From a virus (Duplodnaviria > Heunggongvirae > Uroviricota > Caudoviricetes): DNA of 64,000 nucleotides. The notes beneath the pieces were generated by a model. That model saw only the letters and a program-made list of their open reading frames with translations. It did no database searches and was not told the DNA's origin. Made by a program: the position numbers and the translations under genes. Below are positions 1,698 through 63,745 of this stretch, piece after piece. Within the stretch, counting starts at the first letter, position 1. Each line of letters opens with the position of its first letter. The stretch spans positions 157,721-221,720 of IMG/VR virus record IMGVR_UViG_3300037067_009442. One strand, 5' to 3'.

Positions 1698-2283
1698 GAA
1701 CTTCTCAGAAGCGGGGGATAATCTAGCCCTCATCGATCTGGACGGTACCTTAGCTGACTTCCATAACGGGATGAAGCGAATGATGGATACTCTGCGGAGT
1801 CCGGGTGAGCCTGATTACTCAGATCGCTATGATGGCGTACCCAGTTACATCCAAGCCCGACGGACCCTGATCAAGAAAACCCCTGGGTTCTGGAGAGGCC
1901 TTGACCGCCTAGAGTTAGGTTTTCAGGTGGTAGGCTATTTACAGGAAGCTGGGTTTCGGCTCAATGTCCTAACTAAGTGCTCATCGAAGAATCCAGGTGC
2001 CTGGGCCGAGAAGATTGAGTGGAGCGTCAAGAACCTACCTTCCGCCCAATACACGATCACTGAGGAGAAAAGTATCGTGTACGGGAAGGTGCTAGTGGAT
2101 GACTTCCCTGATTACTACCTTCCTTGGCTCAAGGTCCGCCCTCGAGGCCTAGTGATTGCGGTAGCTCAGCCCTGGAACGAAGGAGAAGATCACCCAAATG
2201 TGATCCGGTATGACGGGAGCAACCAACGTCAAGTACGAGAGGCTATTGACAAAGCCTACCAGAGAGTCGGAACTAAGAAGTAG
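1645..2283 (+). CDS. HAD-superfamily hydrolase (nucleotidase-like)
   Basis: HAD motif I reads LIDLDGTLADF (DxDGT). Start is uncertain because the ORF overlaps the previous one. Stop is TAG at 2281-2283. Confidence 0.5.
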   Translation: MDTTSEWQTGWYPNLKSKNFSEAGDNLALIDLDGTLADFHNGMKRMMDTLRSPGEPDYSDRYDGVPSYIQARRTLIKKTPGFWRGLDRLELGFQVVGYLQEAGFRLNVLTKCSSKNPGAWAEKIEWSVKNLPSAQYTITEEKSIVYGKVLVDDFPDYYLPWLKVRPRGLVIAVAQPWNEGEDHPNVIRYDGSNQRQVREAIDKAYQRVGTKK

Positions 2284-2290
2284 CTAACGT

Positions 2291-2351
2291 CCTACGCACG
2301 AGAGCCCCAATCTTAACCAAAAAGTTGAGATCTGGGGCTCTCGTGCGTAGG
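2291..2351 (+). promoter_or_regulatory. Perfect 19-bp inverted repeat hairpin (cctacgcacgagagcccca / tggggctctcgtgcgtagg) with a 23-nt near-palindromic loop, 7 nt upstream of the ATG at 2359
   Basis: Read directly from the sequence. No T-tract follows, so it is a candidate RNase III or processing site, a terminator without a U-tail, or a translational regulator. Confidence 0.5.
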
Positions 2352-2358
2352 ATAGATC

Positions 2359-2658
2359 ATGGCACGCAAAGAACAGACCTCAAAAACCGTAAACCTTAGG
2401 GTGAAGTCTAGCGCTCTCAATGAGTTGGATGAGGTACTAGGGAACCCGAACGTAGCCACCCAGTACAGGGTTCGCTTCTACGCTAAGCCTGGAGACAAGG
2501 CTGAGGGGATCCCCGTCACTGAGATGTGGGTTGATAACGCCACATCTACCTGCCGGATTCGGAACTACGGGCTAACCTCTATCGAGGCCTTGGATACCAT
2601 TACCCGGGCAGCAGCCTTCATCAAGGCCAGCAACCTCACCATCAACCCTGAATTCTAG
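2359..2658 (+). CDS. Hypothetical protein
   Basis: 99-aa ORF with an ATG start directly after the hairpin. Confidence 0.4.
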   Translation: MARKEQTSKTVNLRVKSSALNELDEVLGNPNVATQYRVRFYAKPGDKAEGIPVTEMWVDNATSTCRIRNYGLTSIEALDTITRAAAFIKASNLTINPEF

Positions 2659-2669
2659 TAGTAGAGGTT

Positions 2670-3008
2670 ATGGAAAAGCCCCCTATTCGGCGAGTCTGGA
2701 TCTACAACCATCTCGAGGGTACTCTCAAGAGGATGCGTAAGGATTCCAAGCGTCTAGTGTGGCACCACCCCAGTCGACCACTCGGGATGGTACTCCTAAA
2801 GGCTAGGAGTACTTCTAAGCCTGAGAGAGCGGATGCTGTGTTCTGGGGAGATACCGCCGAAAGGGCTGTAGAGCGGTCCAACGAATATGCTGAGAGTCGA
2901 ATCAGGATCTTGGAGTCTGACATCCGCGGGTGGAAGCAGACTATAGTCGAGCTCGGACCGGACAATACTGTCCAGAAGAAGGTGAAGTCATGTCATCAAG
3001 GCGAGTAG
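2670..3008 (+). CDS. Hypothetical protein
   Basis: 112-aa ORF with a Shine-Dalgarno-like agaggt 6 nt upstream of the ATG. Confidence 0.4.
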   Translation: MEKPPIRRVWIYNHLEGTLKRMRKDSKRLVWHHPSRPLGMVLLKARSTSKPERADAVFWGDTAERAVERSNEYAESRIRILESDIRGWKQTIVELGPDNTVQKKVKSCHQGE

Positions 3009-3301
3009 CAACACAAGAGCTAGTAGGCCCAGAACATCAGGTTGAATGGGGTACCCTCCTAACCTGTCAGGATGTTGCCAAGGCCGTCATGAACCCCAAG
3101 GGGTGGATCGTCTTCGCTTGGGAGGATACTCCAGGTGCCATTAAGAAGGTGTGCAACCTGAACGGTGGAGATGAGGATTGGGTAGCTATCACAACTGCAG
3201 AACCTAACTGGCTCCCTTCATGGGTAAGCCGCCTGGATTCCTGTGATGAACCGGATACTTACCTCCTCCAAGGTGTGGTCATTTACGTCGGCTCCCACTA
3301 A
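2990..3301 (+). CDS. Hypothetical protein
   Basis: The internal ATG at 2990 is preceded by gaaggtga (Shine-Dalgarno-like). The longer ORF from 2930 overlaps the previous gene. Confidence 0.35.
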   Translation: MSSRRVATQELVGPEHQVEWGTLLTCQDVAKAVMNPKGWIVFAWEDTPGAIKKVCNLNGGDEDWVAITTAEPNWLPSWVSRLDSCDEPDTYLLQGVVIYVGSH

Positions 3302-3488
3302 ACCCCCCAACTAAGTTCGATTTTTGGTTGAGATCTAGGGCCCTCAGACGTAGTACTTAATATGACGAGCTGGTAAGACAGTTCGGAAAGCCTATAAGAC
3401 GGCTGGATTCTAGTATTACCCAACTAGAGGGATAGCAACGCCGAGTTGCCCTTGTCTGAAACTTCAATCGTCTACTAAGGATGCCTCC

Positions 3489-3926
3489 ATGATGTCCGAT
3501 CTGAAAAAACTCTGCAAAACCCGTGGCTTGACCGTAACTACTGTAATCGGAAAGATAGTCGACAACGCGGAAATTGAGAAGGGCTCGGACAGAAAGATCG
3601 AATCCATCGTCGTTCTACAGTACCAAGGTCGGATCATGTCGACCAACCTCATCTTTGGGGATGGAGTAGCCTACCGAGCCGCTAGCCCCTCCAAAAAAGA
3701 GAAGTTGGGGAGAGTCAAGCCTGAGGACGCGATCTGGTCCCTCCTAGTAGACGCCGGGGTCCTCTCCTATACCAACTTTGAAGACTGGGCTAGTAGCTAT
3801 GGGTATGACCTTGACAGTCGAAAGGCCTTGGCTTGCTACGAGACCTGCCTTCGGTCTGCTCACCAACTCAAGGCCCTACTTAGGGACGACTTCAAAGACT
3901 TTCAGGAAGCCAGTCAGGACTCTTAA
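3489..3926 (+). CDS. Hypothetical protein
   Basis: 145-aa ORF with aagga upstream. Ends with TAA at 3924-3926. The next ORF starts 3 nt later in the same frame. Confidence 0.45.
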   Translation: MMSDLKKLCKTRGLTVTTVIGKIVDNAEIEKGSDRKIESIVVLQYQGRIMSTNLIFGDGVAYRAASPSKKEKLGRVKPEDAIWSLLVDAGVLSYTNFEDWASSYGYDLDSRKALACYETCLRSAHQLKALLRDDFKDFQEASQDS

Positions 3927-3929
3927 CCT

Positions 3930-4226
3930 ATGACTCACTTCGTCGTTAAGGGAGATAGGGTAACCGCCCAATGGTTCGAGTGCGATCCACTGGGGTCGTA
4001 TTCCCTAGCGGGGTACCAAACTAAATTCAACGCCAAGCCTAGGTTCATCACCGGAGAAGTTCGGCATATTCGCAGTGATCAACCCACCAACCCTGTGAAC
4101 GTCACCCTCCATGTTCAATCAGAAGGCAACCTTGGGACCCTCTGCCCCAAGTGCCAAGTCTACGAAGTGGAAGTTCGCTTGGAGTGGGTTACTCAAGTCT
4201 ACCCCAAGGAGGCCCCTAGTGGGTAA
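3930..4226 (+). CDS. Hypothetical protein (CPKC motif)
   Basis: 98-aa ORF in frame with the preceding gene across a single TAA codon. Confidence 0.35.
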   Translation: MTHFVVKGDRVTAQWFECDPLGSYSLAGYQTKFNAKPRFITGEVRHIRSDQPTNPVNVTLHVQSEGNLGTLCPKCQVYEVEVRLEWVTQVYPKEAPSG

Positions 4227-46891: not shown

Positions 46892-47765
46892 GTAGATGCT
46901 GGATACCCCTCAAGTCCATAGGTTGATTCCTTATTACTATGGGGTTACATTTAGCAGTCTCAATCCTTGAAGCGAGGATCTTCTTTAGTGGTTCCTCTAG
47001 TAGCTTGTTGAGGGTTGATCCCTCAACAAATCTACCATCTTCAAGTACCCCACTTAAGGTTGTTGCATTAGGTACTTGAACGAGTCTGAACTTAACCAAG
47101 TACCTAGTCATTTCAGTAATGGGGTCTAGGTCATAGTCATAGAGCTCACCAGTACCCTGGCAACGACAATGCTTGGCTTGAACACAGTCTAGGATAGCGG
47201 TACCTTTTTTTGAGGTAAACCTAGACCAGATGTGGTCCAAACCCCAACCATATCGATTACCCTCAAATAAAGGAATAACCTTTCTCAATGCTTCCATAGA
47301 CCAACATGGGACCATAGTTTCAACCATGGTAGTATACCGGAGCTTGAAGCCTTCATGTACCGCTGTGATGGGGTGACTGATAAACCCATCTAGACTCAAT
47401 GCAGGTTGGGCCAATTGAAGATTGTACTCACCCATTGTTAGGAATAACTTGTCTATGTTGGCGGTGGTGAACTCCATATCATCATCGACCAACCAAACAT
47501 ACTTCCGATCTTTGAATAAGTCGGGGCGGGTGTGCCAAAGATTGAAGGTATCCTCGAGTTTCCCACCAACCCCATCAACACGTTCAAAACCATCCCCCCT
47601 GTATTTCTCTGAATCAGTTCCATAATAGGAGACTAAAAGATCCCAATGAGGGCTAGTACCCCAGGTCTTGTGGCGAGATTGCTCTCCTGCACGAGCTATG
47701 ACAAGATTTGGTGAGGACATAGTAGGCACTAAGTAAAGGAAACAGTGATCCCGGAGGAGATACAA
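46866..47765 (-). CDS. Glycosyltransferase-like protein (DXD motif)
   Basis: YVWLVDDDMEF resembles a GT-A fold DXD motif. The assignment is tentative. Confidence 0.35.
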   Translation of the reverse strand: MYLLRDHCFLYLVPTMSSPNLVIARAGEQSRHKTWGTSPHWDLLVSYYGTDSEKYRGDGFERVDGVGGKLEDTFNLWHTRPDLFKDRKYVWLVDDDMEFTTANIDKLFLTMGEYNLQLAQPALSLDGFISHPITAVHEGFKLRYTTMVETMVPCWSMEALRKVIPLFEGNRYGWGLDHIWSRFTSKKGTAILDCVQAKHCRCQGTGELYDYDLDPITEMTRYLVKFRLVQVPNATTLSGVLEDGRFVEGSTLNKLLEEPLKKILASRIETAKCNPIVIRNQPMDLRGIQHLLSIQKSKS

Positions 47766-50700
47766 CTTGCATCTCCTCCAGTGTTAGTTGGAGTAGTCAG
47801 CCAAAACTCTAGTGTTGTTGCACCTGTTGCTGGGGTGACAATACCCCCAACAGAGAATTCAGTCTGTAGGCCATCGATAACATCCGATTCGTATAAGGAA
47901 ATGCTGTTGGTCTTGTCATATAGGCGTACTTGAGCAGTTGACCCTGTTGGGATATTGATGATGGCGTCAAAAGTGAAGGTAGGAGTACCAGTGCCTAAGT
48001 TGAAGTAATCTAGTGCGGGAAGTACACCAAGTAGGGTGTAAGTACTCCCCGCTGATTGAACCCCAGCCATAAGAGGTAGGTACTTCATCGAAGAAGGTGG
48101 TGCATTAATAGTGATTGTACCACTATATACACTCATTGAGGACCTGAAGCTCCAGTAACTAAAGGAGTCCATTTCAACTCCACTACCTACCTCCACCCAA
48201 GAACTCCAATTAATAACGCTATTAATACTCCCTGAGCTGTCAATCTCTATGTACCCTGTTGAACTCGAGATACTAACTCGATTAGTATCATCAACTTGAG
48301 CCTCTAAACCCATACCTACTAACTCAGAATTCAAGTCACTTACGATCTGACCCTTTGAGGTTTCCACACCTGCTGTGACAGTAATTGAGGTAAATGGATC
48401 TCCATCGTGACTCTTAATTAGTAGGGTGTTGGCAGTAGTAGTATCTACTGGATCTAGGGTATTGTACCCTCCAATACTACACATGAATAAGGTAGTGGGG
48501 CCATCAAAGGTGCAATTAGTGAGCTGAAGGCCATTGCCATAAATAACAGCGCTCTGAAAGATGCACCTATCGGCTATAAAACTACCAGTGAAAGTACCCC
48601 CTACAACGACTCTATTCAAACTAACCCTAGAGCCAACTTGCATCCCGTTAGCAAGGTAAACACACTCAAGGTAACCACTGCCACTCAAAATACTAACGTA
48701 GGGTAGTGTTACTGAGTAAGGGCTCACCCCGAGCCCCTTTATACTGAGGGGGTTTGGGGGGTTGTGGGTGGATAACCAGTAGACTAGATCCCCTGAGTAG
48801 TTACCTGGGGTGACAAGTAAGGTTGGGCCCGGGTAGGTGATGCCGCTTACTTGACTGATTGCAGAACTTATCGATGAGTATGGGTTACCTATACTACCAT
48901 TCTCACTGGTAAGTGGTAGACTCGTCCCACCATCAAGGTAACGAATGTTTGACAGTGGTGTTAAAACACTGGTTGCTACCTCAAGCTTAATGGACCCTCC
49001 TCGAAGAGTTAGGACCTTACCTTGGTTAACCCCAAGATCCGTGATAGGTGCAACAGGGATCCCCGCTAGGTGCATCAAAGAACCTAACTTAAGGGCCCCA
49101 CCCATTGGGTAAGTAGTAATGGGGTAGGTGTTTCCGTCATCACCTACCTGGCTCACATAATCACCCTGACGGAAGGCTATGTAAGGCCCTCCTTGGTTGA
49201 TACTTGTGATACAAGAAGGGCCATCTGAAGGTAGGTTCTGACTTAGGCTGATTGACCCTAGTCCTGGAATACAGTGGACTCGGTAAGGATTTAACCCCTC
49301 ATCGGGCCCACCTGTCAGCAACCAAAAAACACTTCTAGATGTATCAATCGACACGTCTAGGGCATAAGTGGGAGCACTCTGTAGTTCCGATAGGTCCCAA
49401 GCCTCTATTTGAGAACCTGGGGCATAGTAAGGGTTTTCCCTAAATTGACCCTCAATAATGTTGATCCAGATTTCCCCATCAAAGTCATTCTCTGCCACCA
49501 TCAAGTAAGTGTCAGACCCACTTGTATATTGCTTGACCGCAGCTACCTGAATCCCGTCCCCTACTACTGTAGGGTTCAGGTAAGTGTCAACGTAGTTGCT
49601 TCCTTGCAGTAAGTGGTAATGATAGGCCCCGGAGTAAGGAGCAGCAGCAAGGTAGTCATACCCTCCAAGAGTGTTAGCTATCCTGATGATACCCGCTAAA
49701 TCAGTATCATCCGTTGGATCTGCCGCAACCACAAGACTGTCCACGTCATCATTAATGTGGACCTCAGTCTCCCCTAAGTGAGCATTGAACTTAGCTTTGA
49801 GATCAATAGCGAGGGCATAACTATTGGGGTAAGAAGGACCCTCATAAGGATCATCAAGGGTTGCATCACCAGTGACAACGTTTGCCACGTCATCTATAAG
49901 GTGGGACCCAAATTGAGTCCTGTGTGCATTGAACTTGTCCCTCAGATCATTGAGTAAGATAGCAACCTCAGGGAAGCTGGGGGATAACCCTATTGTACTG
50001 AAGTTGACCGTATCAGATATGTTATGAACAGGACACTTTACTTGAGACCTGTGGGTGTTGTAAACAGAACGGATGTCATTTGCTAGGGCTATGATCCCTG
50101 GAAGATCAGTATCATCCATTACCACATCAACAGTCAACCTCGAGAGGATGTCTATGTAGTAATGGAGTCCAGTGATTGTAAGCCCCCCATAAGCCCAGTT
50201 AGGTGTGTGAGTGTGACCAGATAAGTAACCTCGAAGCCTATTAGCTAGCTCAGTGGCTGTCGTGTAAGGGCTCGCCACATCTGTGGCATCCGGAGTTGTC
50301 ATTATGTTCCCAGTATCAGGGAACAAGTGGACCTCAGGTTGGACAAGGTGCAGGTTGAACTTAGCCTTCAGGTCATTAAGAAGCAACTGCACTGAAGTTA
50401 AGTCAGTAGCTTCTGGTAGGGTTACTGAGTTGAAGGTGTCGTTGTTCTTGTGGACAGTGAGAGAAGGGTTATACCTTGAGACAATCCCGAATGTACTATC
50501 TCTCCCATAAACCTCTCCTCCATACCAAATGAAGTCTGAGGTACTGGTTTCAACATTCACCCTAGGTATGAACTCAGAGTTTGGGTGAGAGTCTACCGCA
50601 TCGATAACCCCAGTTGAAGGGTTGATCCTGAGTATTCTGAAGACAGACTCGAAGCTATCCATCACACCAACTACCAAAAGACCATTGGTATAGCCGATTG

Positions 50701-52603
50701 ATAGCAGTTGGCTGATTGACGACGGCAAAGTCATTGCCAATGAGTAGGCTACCACTGGAGAAACTAAAGTAGTGTCAACCTTCCAAAGGTAATAGCTTGG
50801 GGCTGCGGGAGCCTCTTGGTAAGTACCAGTGAACCAAGCGTACCTAGTCCCATCAAATACCCCATTGAAGATCTCAAGGCTATTCAGATCGAGTGTTCCG
50901 CCAGTATTGTTCAGGTTAATTGAGGTTGAGACGTATTGGTCAGGAGTCAACTCTGAGATCGCAACGTGAACCACACTTGACTTCCTAACAACCATGAAGG
51001 TGTAGGGGTCAAGAGGGACAATCTTATGAGGTGCTCCAGATTCCGGAAAGGATGTCAGAACATCCCCAGCCTTCACCATATCGGGGTAAGGTACTGGGGT
51101 GTTCAGGTTCAAGTTGGTGACAACCTTCTCTGAAAATCCAGTGATCGGACTCGGGATAGTAGTCTCACCAATGGTGAATGAAGTGAACCCATGCTCGGAT
51201 AGAACAGGATTATCTCCAACAGACACCCATACCTTGACCCCCTGTACTGTTACTTGGTTGTACTGGGAAGTCATCCACCCTTCAGTTGCGGCATTAGGCC
51301 CTAGAGCTACTGTTTTGGCCTTAGTCGTAATATCAACCGCAGTCACATGCTTATGGCTGTCTGAGATGTAGAGTGCGGTAGTTGTGGAGGCTATCCCAGT
51401 AGCATAAGGCTCATAGTAGTTACCACTAGTATTCCAGCAGATTTCAGTACTTGAGGTAGGTGCAGCTGGGAAAGTAGGAATGTCATACTGGAACAAGTAC
51501 GACATCTCAGACATCTCACCAAAAGACTGTAAACCAAGCAACCAGATGTTCCCATCAGTGCTTATGATATCGATGGCACTGAACCAGTCAGTAAGCATCA
51601 CAAAAGTAGAGGTGAGTGTTGTCGGGTTGATCCTTACAAGGGTTTGGCTCCTAGCAGCCCAGATGTAACCATCGGAACCAAAGTGCATTATTTTCAGGTC
51701 GTCAATCGGACCACCAGTGATAACAACCCTAGTCCCATTGGGAGCTTGTGCGGGGAACGCGACTCGAACCTCAGACATCGGTATGTACTGAACGGCACTC
51801 TCTGGTTCAGGGTTGTTGGCATAAGCTAACCAAAGGCGATCAGTGCTGTCGACACAAGCAGTGCATTCCCAAGAAAGTAGTGGAACCCAACCCACCATCT
51901 TCTCAGTGAGTAAGTCAACCACGACTACCGCGACACCACTAGTGTCAAAACCTAGGAGGTAGTTTCCATAGATCTTCAGGGTGGAGATGTAGAAGGTGTT
52001 TAACTCAGTTGAGGTATGAATGATGGCTAACGGAGAACTCCAATCATCTGGATTCACCTTCGCAATCAGGCTCATGCTTGAACTAGTTACCCAAAGGTTA
52101 GTACCGTCCGAGACAACACCACTCCCAGGGGTAAATTGAAGATCAGGGCTAGTGTACAGAACTTCTTTGATCGGTAGCCCTTCAACTCCAATCACCGTTT
52201 GAACGGTAGATGAGCCTGCTAGGTCTCCACCTGCGGTAAACCCTCCTCCGCCCCCCGCTGCCCATTGAGCATGAGTTGAGTCGATAGCAGTGAGTACCTG
52301 TCCCGTAGTAGGGGCGGTTGCACCAGAGACTGAAACTACTGTTGTAGTAGTCTGAAGCCCAGTAGCTACTCCACTTAGGGCCTCAGCAGCCCACGTGGAA
52401 AGATCTGATAATAACCTGTACTTGGTCCCAGTATCGAGGGTGAGAGCTTCCATGCCCTCTTCTCGGATATATACAGGGATAGTATCATCAGTTAGGTTGG
52501 CCAAGCTGGCAACCATCTGAGGAGCTCCAACGATGTCCTTCCGATCAGCAGTCGGAGTGGGGGCGTTGTTCTTGCGAGTGGCTTTGTCTAGGAATTCAGG
52601 CAT
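47729..52603 (-). CDS. Giant virion fibre / structural protein (about 1,625 aa)
   Basis: Continuous 4.9-kb ORF. The ATG at 52603 overlaps the upstream stop (TAATG). The N-terminal motif SGATAPTTGQVLTAIDSTHAQWAAGGGGG is shared with the other structural proteins. The rest is rich in beta-helix/propeller-like repeats. Confidence 0.6.
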   Translation of the reverse strand: MPEFLDKATRKNNAPTPTADRKDIVGAPQMVASLANLTDDTIPVYIREEGMEALTLDTGTKYRLLSDLSTWAAEALSGVATGLQTTTTVVSVSGATAPTTGQVLTAIDSTHAQWAAGGGGGFTAGGDLAGSSTVQTVIGVEGLPIKEVLYTSPDLQFTPGSGVVSDGTNLWVTSSSMSLIAKVNPDDWSSPLAIIHTSTELNTFYISTLKIYGNYLLGFDTSGVAVVVVDLLTEKMVGWVPLLSWECTACVDSTDRLWLAYANNPEPESAVQYIPMSEVRVAFPAQAPNGTRVVITGGPIDDLKIMHFGSDGYIWAARSQTLVRINPTTLTSTFVMLTDWFSAIDIISTDGNIWLLGLQSFGEMSEMSYLFQYDIPTFPAAPTSSTEICWNTSGNYYEPYATGIASTTTALYISDSHKHVTAVDITTKAKTVALGPNAATEGWMTSQYNQVTVQGVKVWVSVGDNPVLSEHGFTSFTIGETTIPSPITGFSEKVVTNLNLNTPVPYPDMVKAGDVLTSFPESGAPHKIVPLDPYTFMVVRKSSVVHVAISELTPDQYVSTSINLNNTGGTLDLNSLEIFNGVFDGTRYAWFTGTYQEAPAAPSYYLWKVDTTLVSPVVAYSLAMTLPSSISQLLSIGYTNGLLVVGVMDSFESVFRILRINPSTGVIDAVDSHPNSEFIPRVNVETSTSDFIWYGGEVYGRDSTFGIVSRYNPSLTVHKNNDTFNSVTLPEATDLTSVQLLLNDLKAKFNLHLVQPEVHLFPDTGNIMTTPDATDVASPYTTATELANRLRGYLSGHTHTPNWAYGGLTITGLHYYIDILSRLTVDVVMDDTDLPGIIALANDIRSVYNTHRSQVKCPVHNISDTVNFSTIGLSPSFPEVAILLNDLRDKFNAHRTQFGSHLIDDVANVVTGDATLDDPYEGPSYPNSYALAIDLKAKFNAHLGETEVHINDDVDSLVVAADPTDDTDLAGIIRIANTLGGYDYLAAAPYSGAYHYHLLQGSNYVDTYLNPTVVGDGIQVAAVKQYTSGSDTYLMVAENDFDGEIWINIIEGQFRENPYYAPGSQIEAWDLSELQSAPTYALDVSIDTSRSVFWLLTGGPDEGLNPYRVHCIPGLGSISLSQNLPSDGPSCITSINQGGPYIAFRQGDYVSQVGDDGNTYPITTYPMGGALKLGSLMHLAGIPVAPITDLGVNQGKVLTLRGGSIKLEVATSVLTPLSNIRYLDGGTSLPLTSENGSIGNPYSSISSAISQVSGITYPGPTLLVTPGNYSGDLVYWLSTHNPPNPLSIKGLGVSPYSVTLPYVSILSGSGYLECVYLANGMQVGSRVSLNRVVVGGTFTGSFIADRCIFQSAVIYGNGLQLTNCTFDGPTTLFMCSIGGYNTLDPVDTTTANTLLIKSHDGDPFTSITVTAGVETSKGQIVSDLNSELVGMGLEAQVDDTNRVSISSSTGYIEIDSSGSINSVINWSSWVEVGSGVEMDSFSYWSFRSSMSVYSGTITINAPPSSMKYLPLMAGVQSAGSTYTLLGVLPALDYFNLGTGTPTFTFDAIINIPTGSTAQVRLYDKTNSISLYESDVIDGLQTEFSVGGIVTPATGATTLEFWLTTPTNTGGDASCISSGITVSFT

Positions 52604-53934
52604 TAGAGCACCGTCACCGTTGTTGAGCCCAGACCCGGAGTAGTGGAGACTCTCCAAAGGTCATAGTTTTGAATGATCCCTTGAGCATTAGTTACAGCTA
52701 CTGCGGAGGCCTCTAGGGACCCCGCGTATTGAAGCCCACCCGACCAGAAGATTGGGGTTCCATAGCTCGAGGGAAGTGCAAAGTATAAATACTGGCCTGC
52801 TAATGCATTATCTGTGTAGGTAGTAACCCTCGAGGTTTGCAGGTTACTACTAGCTAGGCCTGTAATGAAGGCAGCATTATAAGTTCCAGAGACAGAGGCA
52901 CCATGGTATACCCTAGGGAGCCAAGTCACAGTTACTGCAGAAGACTTAGCTGAAGCCCCCGTGACATTGAGAGTCATTGTCCAAGTTGGAGCTGCCCCGA
53001 TCCCAGAGCGAAGGATGGATCCTGCCATGGACCCTGAAGCGAATGGACTATTGAAGGTCCAACTCCCTGGAGCAGTATCAGTCCCACCTGTAGAACCCCC
53101 TGTAGAGTTGGTAATCGTGCCGCTAACAGGGGGTCCAGAGACATAGGATGCAGAAGCCGTTACCCCAGAGATCTCCGTTCCTAGTTCAACTACAGCTGAG
53201 TAATTAGTGCCTGTAGGTGTGAAAGAGGCAATAGAGAAACCTGGAAGGATATCGTCTTGAGTGAGTTGCCTCTTGACGTTCCCACTTGGTGAGCCAATAA
53301 CAACCGCCTCATTAGCTAGGTTGAGCCATGCTGCATTAGTTGAATCAGTAGCCTCAAGGATAGCTCCTGTTGAAGGGGGTGTTGCTGAAAGAGCTACACC
53401 TCGAAGAGCTACCACAGAGGGTGTGGGGTAGTTTGCACCTAAGTCACCTCCAGCAGGCCCTGAAGGTGCTCCGCCACCTCCGCCACCTCCGGATCGTATG
53501 AAAGCATTGAGGAGGGTAGTCCAACCAAAGTCAGGATCCCCTTCGAAGCGCTCCCCTACTGCTCCAACCCGGAAGCCACTACTGAGTAAGGTGTAGACCC
53601 CAAAGGTTGATACTTGACCTGGCCCCCCACCGTCAACAGTAGACCTGAGGATAATAGCCCTCCCAACACCAACACCAACAGGTAAGGTGAAGGTGACAAC
53701 TGTCGAAGGTGATGCTACTTCCCCAGTACCTGAGACCCCAGTAAGAGGTGGGGCACTTGCAGTGACCTCATCGACCCCAAAGACTTTCAGAAACCACTGT
53801 CCAACTGGACCTGGTGTCTTCAATCGAATACTAACAGTATCTCCGGCCGCTACATCGATCCCCCCAGCGGTTTCATACCATGTCCCTGGAGAGGGGTCAG
53901 AAGAGTACTGAACTTGAACTGACGGTGATGACAT
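52603..53934 (-). CDS. Virion structural protein (Gly-rich, fibre/baseplate-like)
   Basis: 443-aa ORF with a GGGGGGG run and the shared SATPPSTGAILEATDSTNAAWLN motif. Confidence 0.5.
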   Translation of the reverse strand: MSSPSVQVQYSSDPSPGTWYETAGGIDVAAGDTVSIRLKTPGPVGQWFLKVFGVDEVTASAPPLTGVSGTGEVASPSTVVTFTLPVGVGVGRAIILRSTVDGGGPGQVSTFGVYTLLSSGFRVGAVGERFEGDPDFGWTTLLNAFIRSGGGGGGGAPSGPAGGDLGANYPTPSVVALRGVALSATPPSTGAILEATDSTNAAWLNLANEAVVIGSPSGNVKRQLTQDDILPGFSIASFTPTGTNYSAVVELGTEISGVTASASYVSGPPVSGTITNSTGGSTGGTDTAPGSWTFNSPFASGSMAGSILRSGIGAAPTWTMTLNVTGASAKSSAVTVTWLPRVYHGASVSGTYNAAFITGLASSNLQTSRVTTYTDNALAGQYLYFALPSSYGTPIFWSGGLQYAGSLEASAVAVTNAQGIIQNYDLWRVSTTPGLGSTTVTVL

Positions 53935-59379: not shown

Positions 59380-60531
59380 GTGATTAACTGTGCTATCCCA
59401 GCCATTTCTGAGATCCCTGATGATTATGTACCTAGTAATTATGACGAACTGTATGAGGTTTACGCCCCATTCGTGACTCGTTTGGTTACTCGCTACAATC
59501 GAGTGCATGCGAACTTCGAGGATCTCCTTCAGCACGTTTGGATGGAAGTCCTAAGGGTCAACTTGATCCAGAAGTACAATACCTCAACAGGTACCCTCCC
59601 AAAGAGGATGACCGCTCTTCAGGTCTGTGCCTTCCTTGGGATTCCTTGGGGGACCTTCAAGATTGGGAATGTGCGAGCTAAGAGCGGGGACATTCGGCGG
59701 AAGAAGAAATCAGAATTCATCTGGGCCCCTGAGGCCCTAGAGAGAGAGATCTACCTTCGGGATAATGGCGTGTGTCACAGCTGTGGCATGGATACCAAAA
59801 TCCTCACCACCTTCTTTGAGGACCACTGGGAGAACTCCAATAAAGGTGCTTATGCCTTGCAGATGGGAAGGATCGGACTGCCTTCGGATCACCGCACTTG
59901 GTCCTACGTTGGTTTAGACGAATCCATAGCCTTCAATAGGAATGACACCTTCAAGGTTAGGTACAAGGTCTTCTGTGCTGCTTGTGTAGTCTCTAATTTC
60001 AGTTCGATCCCGACAGCTAGAGTCAAGCCGGAGAAGAACTGCATGAAGTATTTGGTTCCTGTAGTAGGGACCCACGCTTCGAAGAAGGCTCAGTATGCTC
60101 GGGAGGATGTTCTTCGGTTTAAGCAGTTTCGAGATAAGAATACTCGCTGCAAGAAGACTCAAGGGGTAATGCCCGAAGTGGCTCAATCCAAAGCCAACTT
60201 CAAACCTTACCTTGCTAGATCAGTTCACAATATCTACGCTAATTGGTGTCGGACTAGGAAACGAAGGTATAAGGAGCACTTTCCAGGTGTGGACTTAGAG
60301 ACAGGTCGTTCTTGGGAGGACGCTTTAGTTGATCCCTGTGGTCCGCGTCAAGAGAATCTGCTTGAGTTGAACGAGATCATCAGTCAATTCTTCGATGGTC
60401 GTGAGGAGCTTATAGCCTCCAGGAAAGAGGAGTTACTGTCTTTAGTGGCAAAAGGCCTAACTCCTGAAGAGATTGTCTCCAGGATGAAGCTACCAAAGCA
60501 TGTCCTTAAGAAACTCACGCGTAGTCGCTGA
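59380..60531 (+). CDS. Sigma-70/ECF-like factor with internal Cys-rich (HNH-like/zinc-ribbon) insertion
   Basis: Region-2-like FEDLLQHVWMEVLRV and C-terminal HTH-like LTPEEIVSRMKLPKHVLKKLTRSR. The insert carries YLRDNGVCHSCGMD ... CAAC. Confidence 0.4.
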   Translation: MINCAIPAISEIPDDYVPSNYDELYEVYAPFVTRLVTRYNRVHANFEDLLQHVWMEVLRVNLIQKYNTSTGTLPKRMTALQVCAFLGIPWGTFKIGNVRAKSGDIRRKKKSEFIWAPEALEREIYLRDNGVCHSCGMDTKILTTFFEDHWENSNKGAYALQMGRIGLPSDHRTWSYVGLDESIAFNRNDTFKVRYKVFCAACVVSNFSSIPTARVKPEKNCMKYLVPVVGTHASKKAQYAREDVLRFKQFRDKNTRCKKTQGVMPEVAQSKANFKPYLARSVHNIYANWCRTRKRRYKEHFPGVDLETGRSWEDALVDPCGPRQENLLELNEIISQFFDGREELIASRKEELLSLVAKGLTPEEIVSRMKLPKHVLKKLTRSR

Positions 60532-60542
60532 GAATCAATTTA

Positions 60543-61355
60543 TTGGGATTGAGTAGTGTGTCGAGCCCTACTATCCGATTGAACCAAGCCGTCTACAACC
60601 TCAGAGCAAGGGTAGCTTCATCCCTACCTTGGGGTCTCCGTGTTGCTCGGGTCCTTCACCGTATTCGGTTCGCAACCGAGCCGGCTGAATTCGGACAAGC
60701 TATGTACGGCCTCTTCCTCCTATTTGGAGTTGAGGGGATGCCACCGGCCCCCTTCATGCCGAAGAACACAAGAGAGATCTCACGTCTCAAGGGTTACGGG
60801 AAAGAGTTCGGAACTAAGGCCGCTGGTACAGTTGCTCGGTACTTCAGGAACCAAGAGGATAGCAGACGGAAAGAGACCGTCCGAGATGTACTCTCAATGG
60901 TCTTCCTTAAGTTGTATACGGACAAGAGCCTAAAGAACACACTGGAGGGTAAAGACTTATCCTTTGCGGAGCATTACATTCTCCGAGCAGTTCATAATCA
61001 AGCTCTCGATGTCGTTCGAAGTGAGAAGAAGCGTAAGACTGAGGATGTTGAGGACATGCTAGTCGAACCAGCTTCTTGGGATACTATTGGGGACATTCTT
61101 CCTCAAGCAGAGCAATCCGAGATCATACGAGATATCAAGAGGGTTGTTGGGGATGAACGGGCAGAGGATGTGGCCCTCTACTTCCAGTTGATGCTTGATG
61201 GGTACTCTGACGTCGAGATTACCAAAGGTAGACTTCTCCCTTACCTAAGGGAGAAGGAGTTTCAAGACGACAGTAGAGCCGACGGGATGCTGGACAAGTA
61301 CAAAAGGAAGATTCGGGAAGTTCTGTTGAAACATGATGTACAGCCTCCGGTGTAA
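60543..61355 (+). CDS. ECF-type sigma factor-like protein
   Basis: Region 2 is ETVRDVLSMVFLKLYTD ... FAEHYILRAVHNQALDVVRSEKKRK. Region 4 is ERAEDVALYFQLMLDGYSDVEI. The gene ends with TAA at 61353-61355. Confidence 0.45.
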   Translation: MGLSSVSSPTIRLNQAVYNLRARVASSLPWGLRVARVLHRIRFATEPAEFGQAMYGLFLLFGVEGMPPAPFMPKNTREISRLKGYGKEFGTKAAGTVARYFRNQEDSRRKETVRDVLSMVFLKLYTDKSLKNTLEGKDLSFAEHYILRAVHNQALDVVRSEKKRKTEDVEDMLVEPASWDTIGDILPQAEQSEIIRDIKRVVGDERAEDVALYFQLMLDGYSDVEITKGRLLPYLREKEFQDDSRADGMLDKYKRKIREVLLKHDVQPPV

Positions 61356-61364
61356 TTCAGCACT

Positions 61365-61529
61365 GTGAACTTACCTCTCAACACAATCATCAATGGTCTG
61401 TGTCTGCCTGTACTGAAGACGCTGCCTGATGAGTTCCTTGATGCCCTGGTCACCGATCCCCCTTACGGCCTGGGAGACAAGGACCCAACCCTAGAAGAGA
61501 TCATCGCCTACCTTCAAGGTAGGCGATGA
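61365..61529 (+). pseudogene. N-terminal module of the DNA methyltransferase (motif IV, LVTDPPYGL), in a different frame from the rest of the gene and lacking an ATG
   Basis: The frame-0 translation VNLPLNTIINGLCLPVLKTLPDEFLDALVTDPPYGLGDKDPTLEEIIAYLQGRR* is a canonical beta-class MTase N-terminus. The only possible start is GTG at 61365. It is in frame with the upstream ORF across its TAA stop. The rest of the MTase is in the +1 frame from 61495/61537. Confidence 0.45.
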
Positions 61530-61536
61530 TCTCAAT

Positions 61537-63408
61537 ATGGGTGAGTTCATGAATCGGGACTGGGAGCTCCCCTCAGTGGCTGTTTGGAGGGAGTGCTATC
61601 GGATCATGAAGCCTGGGGCCTTTCTCCTCTGCTTCGCTGGTACACGAACCCTAGACATCCTCTCTATTGGGATCCGAGCTGCAGGGTTTGAGAACAGGGA
61701 CTGCATTCCTACTGAGATGGGCCCTCCCATCCTTCGGTGGATCAGAGCTCAAGGGATGCCAAAGAGCACTGATATTGAAAAACTCATTCTTAGTGGTATT
61801 GAGAGGAGTTATGGTAAAAAAGTCTGCAGTTGCAACCAAAAAGAAGGAACGCACAGTAAAGTGGACCCCGAAGTGGATCAGTTTACTAGGTTCAATGTCG
61901 GATGCAAAACTAGCAGTGCAGATGGGTTGCGGGGAACTATCAGTGAGTCGGAAACGTCGCCAACTCAAGATTCAGTCCTATCGTTCTCAGAACGGGTCGA
62001 AGCCAGTGGCTTGCTCGGTATGCGGGAAGATCAGGATGAGACAAGCGAAGAACTCAAAGAGGTGCAAGCACCCTTATTGTTCAACTCAATGCTCAGCGGA
62101 AGGTCAACGTCGTCGGGACTTGGAGATACTTCGGTACGGGCCAGGTTGGAAGAAGATTCGGAACGAAGTTCGGGATCGGGACAAGGTGTGTCGGATTTGC
62201 GGAAAAACCCCAGAACAAAACGGGGCCGAACTTCAAGTTCATCACTTGAAGCCCTATCGATTTCAGGGGTCAAATCAACTGAGAAATCTGATAGCGCTTT
62301 GCACCAGTTGTCACCACAAGATAGAAGCAATCACAAGTACTGCTCTGGACTTGATTCAGATCGAAGTAAGCCTAGAGAGGTCTTTTCTAACCGTTATGTT
62401 GATGGGTCAGATTCTGTGGCAAGGGTCTGTTCTTGGTGTGGGCTCCCAGATCCTGATTGGATCAGATCTACCCAAGGGTTAGGAACTGCTTTAAAACCTT
62501 ATTGGGAGCCTATTCTAGTTTTCCGTAAGCCTATAGTTGAGGGGTCAGTATTAAAGCAAGTAGTGGCGACTGGGACTGGTGGGATCAACATCGAAGCTTC
62601 TCGAGTCAAGCACTCCTCTAAAGAGGATTTTGAGGCCCATAAAAAGGGGGTTGATGCCATTAAAGCTCGAGGGGGCAAGATGGCCAACAGCTGGAAGAAC
62701 AGCTCAGATCTCTCCGGGGCTAATGATGTCAAAACCTCGGGTCGCTTCCCTCCAAACCTGATCATCGTCCACTCAGACCTCTGTATCAAGATGGGGACTG
62801 AGATGGTGGCAATGCCCCCTATCAATCGCTTTGACGATGGAGCTAAGCCATTTGGCGGTGGGGCAGGGCACAAGTATACGACCGTTCATCGAGATGATGA
62901 GGAAGTTGAGATCTGGGATTGCCATCACTCATGCCCAGTACGGTGGCTCAACTACCACAGTGGAGCGGTCAGCGAGAAACCAGCTAAGAAGAAGAAAGGG
63001 GAACCAAGGTTAGAAAAACAAGAGCCGTTGGGAGCCTCCAAGTACTTCTTCAATGTGAACCCAGACTCCACCTTCTTCTACGTACCCAAGCCCAATCAAC
63101 GTGAGAAGGATGAAGGTTTGGATGAGGATGAGGAGAATGAGCACGTCTCGGTGAAGCCTGTGAGGCTCATGGAGTATTTGGTCAAGATGGTGACCCCACC
63201 CAAGGGGATCGTTCTCGACCCTTATTGTGGATCAGGTACCACTTGCGTTGCTGCAATCCGCTCAGGATTTGACTTCATTGGTATCGAGAAAGAAGCGCCG
63301 TCCGCCGCCACCTCTCAAGCTAGGGTTGAGAATGCTCTTCGGGAACGGCGGGAGATTGAGACTCAACGGGAAGCGTTCGAGCTCTCTCTTGAGCTTGAAT
63401 CAGAGTAG
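61537..63408 (+). CDS. Beta-class N6-adenine/N4-cytosine DNA methyltransferase, body and C-terminus, containing an embedded +1-frame HNH gene
   Basis: Sequence order: W..ECYRIMKPGAFLLCFAG, GFENRD, then a 225-aa low-complexity insert, WEPILVFRKP, motif X VKPVRLMEYLV and motif I VLDPYCGSGTT. This matches the permuted beta-class order IV-V-VIII-X-I. Confidence 0.55.
   Translation: MGEFMNRDWELPSVAVWRECYRIMKPGAFLLCFAGTRTLDILSIGIRAAGFENRDCIPTEMGPPILRWIRAQGMPKSTDIEKLILSGIERSYGKKVCSCNQKEGTHSKVDPEVDQFTRFNVGCKTSSADGLRGTISESETSPTQDSVLSFSERVEASGLLGMREDQDETSEELKEVQAPLLFNSMLSGRSTSSGLGDTSVRARLEEDSERSSGSGQGVSDLRKNPRTKRGRTSSSSLEALSISGVKSTEKSDSALHQLSPQDRSNHKYCSGLDSDRSKPREVFSNRYVDGSDSVARVCSWCGLPDPDWIRSTQGLGTALKPYWEPILVFRKPIVEGSVLKQVVATGTGGINIEASRVKHSSKEDFEAHKKGVDAIKARGGKMANSWKNSSDLSGANDVKTSGRFPPNLIIVHSDLCIKMGTEMVAMPPINRFDDGAKPFGGGAGHKYTTVHRDDEEVEIWDCHHSCPVRWLNYHSGAVSEKPAKKKKGEPRLEKQEPLGASKYFFNVNPDSTFFYVPKPNQREKDEGLDEDEENEHVSVKPVRLMEYLVKMVTPPKGIVLDPYCGSGTTCVAAIRSGFDFIGIEKEAPSAATSQARVENALRERREIETQREAFELSLELESE
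61811..62482 (+). mobile_element. HNH endonuclease gene nested in the +1 frame inside the methyltransferase ORF
   Basis: Canonical HNH core CRICGKTPEQNGAELQVHHLKPYRFQGSNQLRNLIALCTSCHHKIE, preceded by a CSVCG...CKHPYC zinc ribbon. ATG at 61811. The frame is open from 61667. Confidence 0.55.
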
Positions 63409-63745
63409 TCTTTTGAAGGTGGGTTAGCTTCTTGATAGCAAACTCTCTCTTGAGGGCATTACCCTTTCCTTCAACCACCTCTAGATAGACATTCACCCAA
63501 GGCCGCCCTGCTCGGGTAGCCTTGGCCCCTCTACCTGCATTGTGGGTTTTTAGTCTACTTTCAGGGTTGTTGCTGATTCCGGTGTAGTATCTACCAGTGA
63601 CTTCACTCCGAATAATGTAGACAAACCAAGTGGAACACCTATCAATACTCGATAAGTTTGTAGTTGGCGGTGATGAGAGTGATGAGGGCTGGAAGCTCGG
63701 CCCGTTTTTGGTCAGTAAGGAAGGGGTATTCTGGTCAGTAGTCAC
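63320..63745 (-). CDS. GIY-YIG nuclease family protein (YhbQ/Slx1-like)
   Basis: WFVYIIRSEVTGRYYTGISNNPESRLKTHNAGRGAKATRAGRPW. It overlaps the 3' end of the MTase gene. Confidence 0.5.
   Translation of the reverse strand: MTTDQNTPSLLTKNGPSFQPSSLSSPPTTNLSSIDRCSTWFVYIIRSEVTGRYYTGISNNPESRLKTHNAGRGAKATRAGRPWVNVYLEVVEGKGNALKREFAIKKLTHLQKTTLIQAQERARTLPVESQSPAVPEEHSQP

Follow-up and report, generated by a model that had tools for sequence, protein, structure and literature searches.

The methyltransferase and nuclease frames

The 64,000-nucleotide (nt) stretch analysed here, in the following called the window, covers positions 157,721 to 221,720 of the Caudoviricetes virus record IMGVR_UViG_3300037067_009442 and carries a DNA methyltransferase (MTase) gene, the reading frame of which stays open across a complete second gene for an HNH endonuclease. 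The main MTase open reading frame (ORF) occupies 61537..63408 on the + strand with 623 codons, is apparently of the beta class (N6A/N4C) and matches N6_N4_Mtase (PF01555, E 1.9e-22 in Pfam), with motif I, DPYCGSGTT, at 63217-63243 (+). The inner ORF extends on the same strand, in the +1 frame relative to the MTase, from the ATG at 61811 to the TAG ending at 62482, encodes 223 amino acids (aa) and matches HNH (PF01844, E 1.4e-9 in Pfam). This layout had been described in an earlier interpretation of the letters without database searches (the sequence-only reading), and its coordinates and frames were confirmed.

The HNH protein begins with a helix-turn-helix (HTH)-like WTPxxxxLLGxxSD module, which is followed by a CxxC...CxxxC zinc finger, the HNH core at 62189-62323 and a conserved, beta-like C-terminal tail; the related HNH proteins possess one to three such HTH-like repeats plus the zinc finger, as found in homing enzymes. 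Both ends of the gene are interlocked with the host frame, as the ATG is embedded in host-frame Tyr-Gly codons (TATGG) and the TAG overlaps the conserved MTase codons for QGLG. The HNH frame is open for another 48 codons upstream of the ATG at 61811, reaching to a TTG at 61667. A Shine-Dalgarno-like GAGAGGAG at 61801..61808 (+), read as (I)ERS in the MTase frame, ends 2 nt before the ATG; GAGG(G/A) boxes with a 5-nt spacing precede the ATG of the relatives L001, L002 and L008, and the mycobacteriophage copies have similar ones. No match to a sigma-70 promoter internal to the gene that could serve the HNH ORF was found on the + strand.

The extent of the whole, putatively mobile insert was derived from alleles that lack it, a comparison that the sequence-only reading had proposed, and DNA and protein alignments agree on ~61783..62475 (+), ~690 nt or MTase codons ~83-313. 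As seen in the alignment of the filled window allele with the empty allele L010 and the mini-allele L011, the insert takes the place of ~57 nt of a variable loop that is flanked by ...PKSTD and G(L/F)GTALKP in the empty allele; the HNH ORF begins 28 nt inside the 5' edge of the insert and runs past the 3' edge. Read in the host frame, the HNH core (61843..62349, +) yields ~170 aa rich in Ser, Glu, Asp, Arg and Gly that are predicted to be disordered; SVRGRLEDNSSQDSEQGR is an example of a stretch of the host-frame loop.

The stop-free host frame is real and far beyond chance. In the HNH frame, T is the last base of 53 codons, and 54 codons open with AA, AG or GA, so that 12.8 junctions of the kind T|AA, T|AG or T|GA would be expected; none occurs, a recount in line with the earlier figures of ~50, ~54, ~12 and none. 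Accordingly, the 223 codons of the HNH gene hold 0 host-frame stops, and the remaining + frame has 17. In a permutation test that shuffled synonymous HNH codons, retaining the protein and its own codon pool, host-frame stops numbered 12.3 on average and 2 at the least, and zero stops occurred in 0/100,000 permutations; the test is conservative, since the constraint has left its mark on the codon pool. The sequence-only reading would have had to be given up if such recodings frequently left the host frame open, which they do not. Among the 52 other ORFs of the window that served as a control (14,790 codons), the stop density in the -1 frame is 7.6% and the longest open run counts 95 codons, compared to the run of >223 codons at the HNH gene.

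An alternative genetic code was considered because the window encodes an 89-nt type-II-like tRNA at 41610-41698 (+), the UUA anticodon of which would read UAA (ARAGORN 'tRNA-Stop'; Rfam tRNA 52.7 bits). This candidate explanation was rejected, as the reading frame does not stay open for long beyond the TAA of ORFs ended by this codon, and the host frame lacks not only TAA but also TAG and TGA.

Relatives of the element and selection in each frame

A protein search with the 623-aa ORF retrieved three kinds of alleles, namely insert-free ones (P0001 of locus L010, 463 aa and 95% identical, and P0005, 77% identical), insert-bearing ones with 36-57% identity in the best local alignment (P0003, P0004, P0042, P0043, P0054, P0061 and P0096) and a mini-insert allele (P0002 of locus L011). 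More than 100 of the 120 matches listed are MTase homologues that do not have the insert with its four-cysteine module described below, and the element is patchily distributed even among close relatives. On the DNA level, the site is the same in all seven insert-bearing genes (7/7), each of which has an HNH ORF that is intact, lies in the +1 frame and stops directly in front of G(L/F)GTALKP; when each gene was tested separately, 5.5-12.6 host-frame stops were expected and 0 observed. In all, 8 loci other than that of the window were tested one by one, and stop depletion is significant in each, with P from <5e-5 to 1e-3.

Relatives were collected more widely by pattern scans with the HNH alignment, followed by tblastn, which provided 26 full-length relatives including duplicate loci, equivalent to roughly 16 distinct sequences. 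No host-frame stop is present over the whole HNH ORF in 24 of the 26. The exceptions are L025 (~1900-3600), where the MTase has lost both of its ends and one host-frame stop lies inside an HNH ORF that is itself intact, and L023 (~1900-3200), in which the MTase has been deleted save for a DPPY N-terminal fragment fused in frame to HNH. Since a stop has arisen in L025, the MTase is lost in L023 and ~100 distant free-standing HNH ORFs show a stop density of 5.3% in the -1 frame, the open frame goes along with a live MTase, as selection on the host gene predicts. A scan of bacterial and archaeal genomes recovered relatives at the level of the HNH domain only and no full-length element.

In P0088 (867 aa), an unrelated insert of ~190 aa (residues ~150-350) occupies the MTase site of the window insert, here flanked by PKSTD and GSNLKPAWEP; it may conceal another nested gene.

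Substitution patterns differ sharply along the gene. The MTase flanks show a ratio of nonsynonymous to synonymous substitution (omega) of 0.077-0.086 between insert-bearing alleles, at a synonymous divergence (dS) of at least 1.8, and omega of the main MTase ORF against the insert-free allele L010 is 0.02-0.05. As omega of the flanks is so low, purifying selection on the insert-bearing methylases has remained strong. Within the core of the insert, on the other hand, omega is 0.17-0.19 in the HNH frame, compared to an apparent omega of 1.4-2.1 for the same nucleotides in the MTase frame, with the third position of the HNH codons showing the greatest nucleotide diversity throughout. These values indicate that in the core only the HNH frame is constrained at the amino acid level and that the host frame is constrained solely to remain open. 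The proposal of the sequence-only reading that both frames are selected is thereby retained in a narrower form, with the host frame merely kept stop-free in the core and a protein-level constraint at the ends. Between L001 and L002, dS of the HNH frame is 1.0 versus 1.8 for the flanks, that is, the insert is less diverged than its flanks.

The host-frame constraint at the protein level is confined to the insert ends, where it takes the form of a CxC...CxxC motif. Its first half (Cys97 and Cys99 of the 623-aa ORF; 61825..61833, +) is located right after the HNH start and is modelled with a predicted local distance difference test (pLDDT) score of about 85; its second half, CSWC (Cys298 and Cys301 in ARVCSWCGLPD; 62428..62439, +), lies near the HNH tail. 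CxC is found in 12/12 aligned loci and three further intact copies, with the overlapping HNH-frame residues varying, and CSWCG in 12/12 aligned sequences, with CTWC, CPRC and CGRC in L017, L026 and L022, respectively, such that CxC...CxxC is kept in every intact copy inspected. In the last 12-codon interval, identity is higher in the MTase frame (0.57) than in the HNH frame (0.47).

Structure prediction, proposed along with the sequence-only reading, was performed for the 623-aa protein and for the mini-insert protein P0002. The AlphaFold2 model of the window protein, based on a 73-sequence alignment, resembles the fold of the beta-class N6A/N4C methyltransferases M.BceJIV, M.RsrI and CcrM, into which the insert is set with residues 103-271 at pLDDT <50 and devoid of secondary structure, in agreement with the disordered loop initially postulated, and with cysteine-bearing flanks at 66-86. 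In the model of P0002, the insert has a pLDDT of 45-84 with moderate confidence at the four-cysteine segment.

Mini-forms of the element have been observed in L011 (614-2179; P0002) and in gp58 of mycobacteriophage Oogway (Oogway_58; supplement of PMC9957025). In these forms the HNH core has been deleted and the +1 frame is broken; the host-frame CxC...CSWCG and the MTase frame are intact. The two lineages are very distant and the end points of the deletions are similar.

With respect to the window copy itself, the 623-codon ORF is not the whole MTase, as the sequence-only reading overlooked a frameshift. The N-terminal 54 codons (61365..61529, +), with a GTG start, the DPPY motif IV at 61455-61466 and a TGA at 61527-61529, lie in the third frame, different from that of the rest of the gene, and match the beginning of the empty allele L010/P0001, which is intact, in a codon-by-codon alignment with an omega of 0.057. 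The beta-class hallmarks, motifs in the order IV...VIII...I and a Rossmann-like fold, are present, with DPPY split off by a gain of 4 nt. The break coincides with a perfect palindrome of 37 nt at 61497..61533, composed of 18-nt arms around a 1-nt centre (GAGATCATCGCCTACCTT c AAGGTAGGCGATGATCTC; 100% complementary). In the alignment with L010, the right arm places 21 nt where 17 native nt are found, equal to a +4 frameshift, and repeats the native left arm exactly in reverse complement; the palindrome is not present in L010, L001 and L002. Such a pattern points to a template switch at a quasi-palindrome or to fold-back repair. As everything else in the gene looks selected (omega 0.02-0.06 against L010 for the rest of the gene, at dS 0.5-0.8), the lesion appears to be recent, with a sequencing artefact or a +1 frameshifting site much less likely. 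Because the frameshift of the MTase is apparently so recent, the gene in this window has probably inherited its open frame and no longer makes use of it.

The palindrome site, after AYLQGA, is also the position of another in-frame insert of ~250 aa in P0043 and P0033. Inside this insert, L004 (P0043) encodes a DUF559/Vsr-like nuclease ORF (3163-3993, -; PF04480, 37.4 bits) on the opposite strand and codon-aligned with the MTase frame, and the same sequence is found in L018 and L029. The antisense ORF does not use TTA, CTA and TCA codons (0 versus about 5 expected; P about 3e-3 to 5e-4), and therefore the MTase frame remains open over it. An intein domain was not detected in the nested insert of L004.

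Explanations for the nested arrangement

The arrangement is probably explained by a free-standing HNH homing-endonuclease gene, neither intron nor intein, which sits in the +1 frame in place of a surface loop in a phage MTase gene of the beta class, with the host frame being read through. A homing-endonuclease gene tolerated as an in-frame insertion had been one of the options of the sequence-only reading and is the best supported among them. Ribosomes on the MTase mRNA would continue through the element and produce an active enzyme with a ~230-aa extra loop, the base of which would probably be pinned by a four-cysteine (zinc) knuckle, so that splicing would not be needed. The HNH protein would be translated on its own from its ATG, preceded in the window by GAGAGGAG, and would cut insert-free alleles, the repair of which would copy the cassette in and displace the native variable loop (homing). 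Selection of the phage for the MTase would in turn purge those HNH-synonymous changes that make T|AA, T|AG or T|GA junctions, as such mutations would be fatal to the MTase.

Several observations speak against this explanation. The read-through MTase and the HNH protein are both predicted products, known here from their genes. The insert stands in place of a loop and is not a simple insertion, which leaves the edges of the homing site not exactly placed. The Shine-Dalgarno-like box before the HNH ATG is missing in several of the relatives among the loci compared. A zinc ribbon is not confidently predicted by AlphaFold2, neither for the window protein nor for P0002, and the idea of a zinc staple is backed by conservation and not by structure prediction. 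Finally, DPPY is not in frame with the remainder of the window MTase, and read-through of this copy would probably yield an inactive protein, barring +1 frameshifting or a sequencing error.

A wider proposal is that a host-frame four-cysteine, probably zinc-binding, staple at the element ends holds the loop together at its base and thereby lets an MTase fold despite ~230 interrupting residues and that, taken together with the antisense DUF559 case, read-through nesting may represent a general third strategy beside introns and inteins. This proposal is tentative and regarded as conceivable rather than probable; if true, such elements follow recognizable sequence rules, a stop-purged frame plus an end staple.

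Compatible with homing, but unlikely to be the principal explanation, is a domesticated module, in which the insert, or its four-cysteine ends plus the loop, serves the MTase, for example as a zinc-ribbon DNA-binding or specificity element; the host frame would then be kept open for the sake of this role rather than just being tolerated. The presence of CxC...CxxC in every intact copy inspected, with VCSWCG conserved in the host frame while the HNH-frame residues vary, would fit such a function, as would the persistence of the four-cysteine module after loss of the HNH core in the mini-forms of two distant lineages (P0002/L011 and Oogway_58) and the replacement of the native variable loop by the insert. 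The loop core, however, experiences no host-frame amino acid constraint and is predicted to be disordered, and the module is wholly missing from the more than 100 homologues among the 120 listed, a patchiness like that of a selfish element.

The proposal of the sequence-only reading that one locus provides a minimal restriction-modification or addiction-like unit, with HNH as the cognate nuclease of the MTase, is improbable. Nuclease and MTase indeed share the same DNA and are both under purifying selection, but co-inheritance of nuclease and MTase, as characteristic for type II restriction-modification systems, is not observed: HNH is absent from the 95%- and 77%-identical MTases P0001 and P0005, the mini-alleles retain the MTase without HNH, and the decayed loci L025 and L023 retain HNH without a functional MTase. 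Furthermore, the one to three HTH-like repeats and the zinc finger are those of homing enzymes, and a sister element in the same MTase family acts as a homing element (PMC9957025, PMC11855218).

That splicing, by an unrecognized self-splicing intron or at the protein level, removes the insert and renders the open frame incidental can hardly be maintained. Phage group I introns often carry HNH genes and divergent introns may evade covariance models; yet an incidental open frame is statistically excluded in every lineage, the HNH stop overlaps the conserved MTase codons (QGLG), four host-frame cysteines are conserved inside the insert and the published sister element likewise lacks intron and intein features. 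The search for a group I intron suggested by the sequence-only reading gave no Intron_gpI match even at E<=10; more broadly, no group I or group II intron was detected at the Rfam gathering threshold in the whole window or at E<=10 over 61300-63500. Similarly, no Hint-family domain of inteins (Pfam) was found, and the host-frame insert sequence is of low complexity and disordered.

Equally far-fetched is programmed +1 frameshifting, also raised by the sequence-only reading as a means of production, that joins the frames into an MTase(N)-HNH fusion or rescues the split window MTase at 61518-61524 (GGU AGG C in a hairpin). In its favour are the 48 open codons that precede the ATG in the HNH frame of the window, the rare AGG next to the GGU of the shift site, both in the 18-bp hairpin, and the MTase N-terminal fragment of L023 that is fused in frame to HNH. 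Stops immediately before the HNH ATG in L004, L011 and L015 and within four codons of it in L001 show, however, that the fusion is not conserved, and the palindrome with its 4-nt gain is unique to the window and nothing suggests an evolved recoding signal.

Genomic setting and known systems

The window is phage-like, with 50% GC, matches to generic phage families in PHROG and a sigma-like gene. Upstream of the MTase (59380-61355, +) are located a sigma-70 region-2-like ORF and a 270-aa ORF of no assigned function, in synteny with L001, L002 and L010; genes for a peptide deformylase and a dCTP deaminase are found near the MTase in relatives. Downstream, a GIY-YIG ORF (63320-63745, -; PF01541, E 1.2e-18) converges on the MTase and, as called, overlaps its last 89 nt, and small GIY-YIG genes are close to the MTase also in L001 and L006. 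Most large ORFs of the window, including one of 1,642 aa at 47729-52657, are without a PHROG family, and megablast of 24 kb of the window against 50,697 phage records gave no nucleotide match to a known phage.

The sequence-only reading was mistaken in considering the arrangement not previously described. Arsenault, Gosselin & Gogarten 2025 (PMC11855218), following Gosselin et al. 2023 (PMC9957025), reported the 'ShiLan domain', a 202-aa insertion in the gp65 methylase of mycobacteriophage ShiLan, with a stop-free methylase frame, a hidden out-of-frame HNH, no intron or intein features, a predicted loop and a disjunct distribution (PMC11855218). Pacc40 gp60 is a second published case, and the same work mentions the HNH homing endonuclease I-HmuI (PMC11855218). 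The ShiLan domain and the window element have in common an out-of-frame HNH gene in a PF01555 phage methylase, a poorly structured in-frame loop and patchiness, and ShiLan gp65 belongs to one pham, and the same MTase family, with HanShotFirst gp60, which harbours an element of the window type. The two elements are nevertheless not identical, as ruled out by site, frame and HNH subfamily. The ShiLan insert is positioned about 10 codons further downstream (ALKPSYEP|...|TAFEPIVVARKP) than that of the window; its HNH ORF, of another HNH subfamily, starts with GTG, ends with TAA and is read in the +2 frame, compared to ATG, TAG and +1 in the window; and it has no host-frame CxC...CxxC. Between the two HNH proteins, BLASTP aligns 40 aa only (E 0.03), over a common CxxC..YCSxxC finger, and tblastn with the window HNH did not retrieve ShiLan.

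True homologues are the nested HNH ORFs in HanShotFirst gp60, Lamina13 gp61/gp62, Optimus gp142, SG4 gp70, Tarkin gp98 and Tasp14 gp61, with 49% identity over 203 aa (E 3e-73) between the HanShotFirst and the window HNH. The HanShotFirst/Lamina13-type elements share with the window the site (between GSGFPKS and GTALKP), the +1 frame, the ATG in host-frame Y-G, the host-frame ends ERYGxxxCxC...KVCSWCGLPD and the complete lack of host-frame stops. Differences concern the setting, as the mycobacteriophage copies reside in actinobacteriophages with 62% GC and an intact MTase N-terminus, compared to 50% GC and a frameshifted gene in the window. No discussion of the window-type element was found in the text of PMC11855218 or PMC9957025; in GenBank, the nested HNH is entered in some records as a coding sequence that overlaps the methylase, for example Lamina13 gp62. 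With respect to annotation, out-of-frame or antisense nested genes may be concealed in long 'disordered inserts' of phage enzymes.

I-HmuI and other HNH homing endonucleases encoded in group I introns interrupt a conserved phage gene at a conserved site. While I-HmuI-type genes are intron-borne, no ribozyme was detected for the window element in the searches described above, and the open host frame would make RNA splicing unnecessary. The mobE gene in nrdA of Aeromonas phage Aeh1 ('genes in pieces') is said to be an intron-less and intein-less HNH gene in a functional phage gene, with nrdA reportedly split into two separately translated polypeptides that reassemble. Host function would be retained in both situations, but by two polypeptides in Aeh1 and by one read-through polypeptide in the window-type host frame.

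A paper on this embedded gene is cited as Gibb & Edgell 2007 in bioRxiv 10.1101/2025.01.02.630785. Inteins with out-of-frame or antisense homing endonucleases also exist (bioRxiv 10.1101/2025.01.02.630785), in which, like here, the nuclease ORF occupies another frame or the other strand of an open host stretch; those elements, however, are spliced at the protein level by a Hint domain, which was not detected here. The antisense VSR-like intein case among them (bioRxiv 10.1101/2025.01.02.630785) resembles the DUF559 ORF nested in P0043/L004.

With a PF01555 insertion absent from close relatives, a stop-free host frame, a complete HNH gene in an alternative frame and no intron or intein signature, the window element falls within the published class of hidden HNH insertions, of which it represents a distinct family. 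It extends this recently described and still unexplained class, in which selfish homing-endonuclease genes would persist in a host gene without splicing, from a few mycobacteriophages to unrelated, uncultured phage lineages. To the published description are added a quantitative proof of stop purging, purifying selection on the insert-bearing methylases, natural decay controls with host-frame stops once the methylase is dead, a second, antisense nested nuclease and the four-cysteine host-frame motif, which provides a testable structural mechanism and, together with the site, the frame and the HNH subfamily, sets the window-type element apart from the ShiLan domain.

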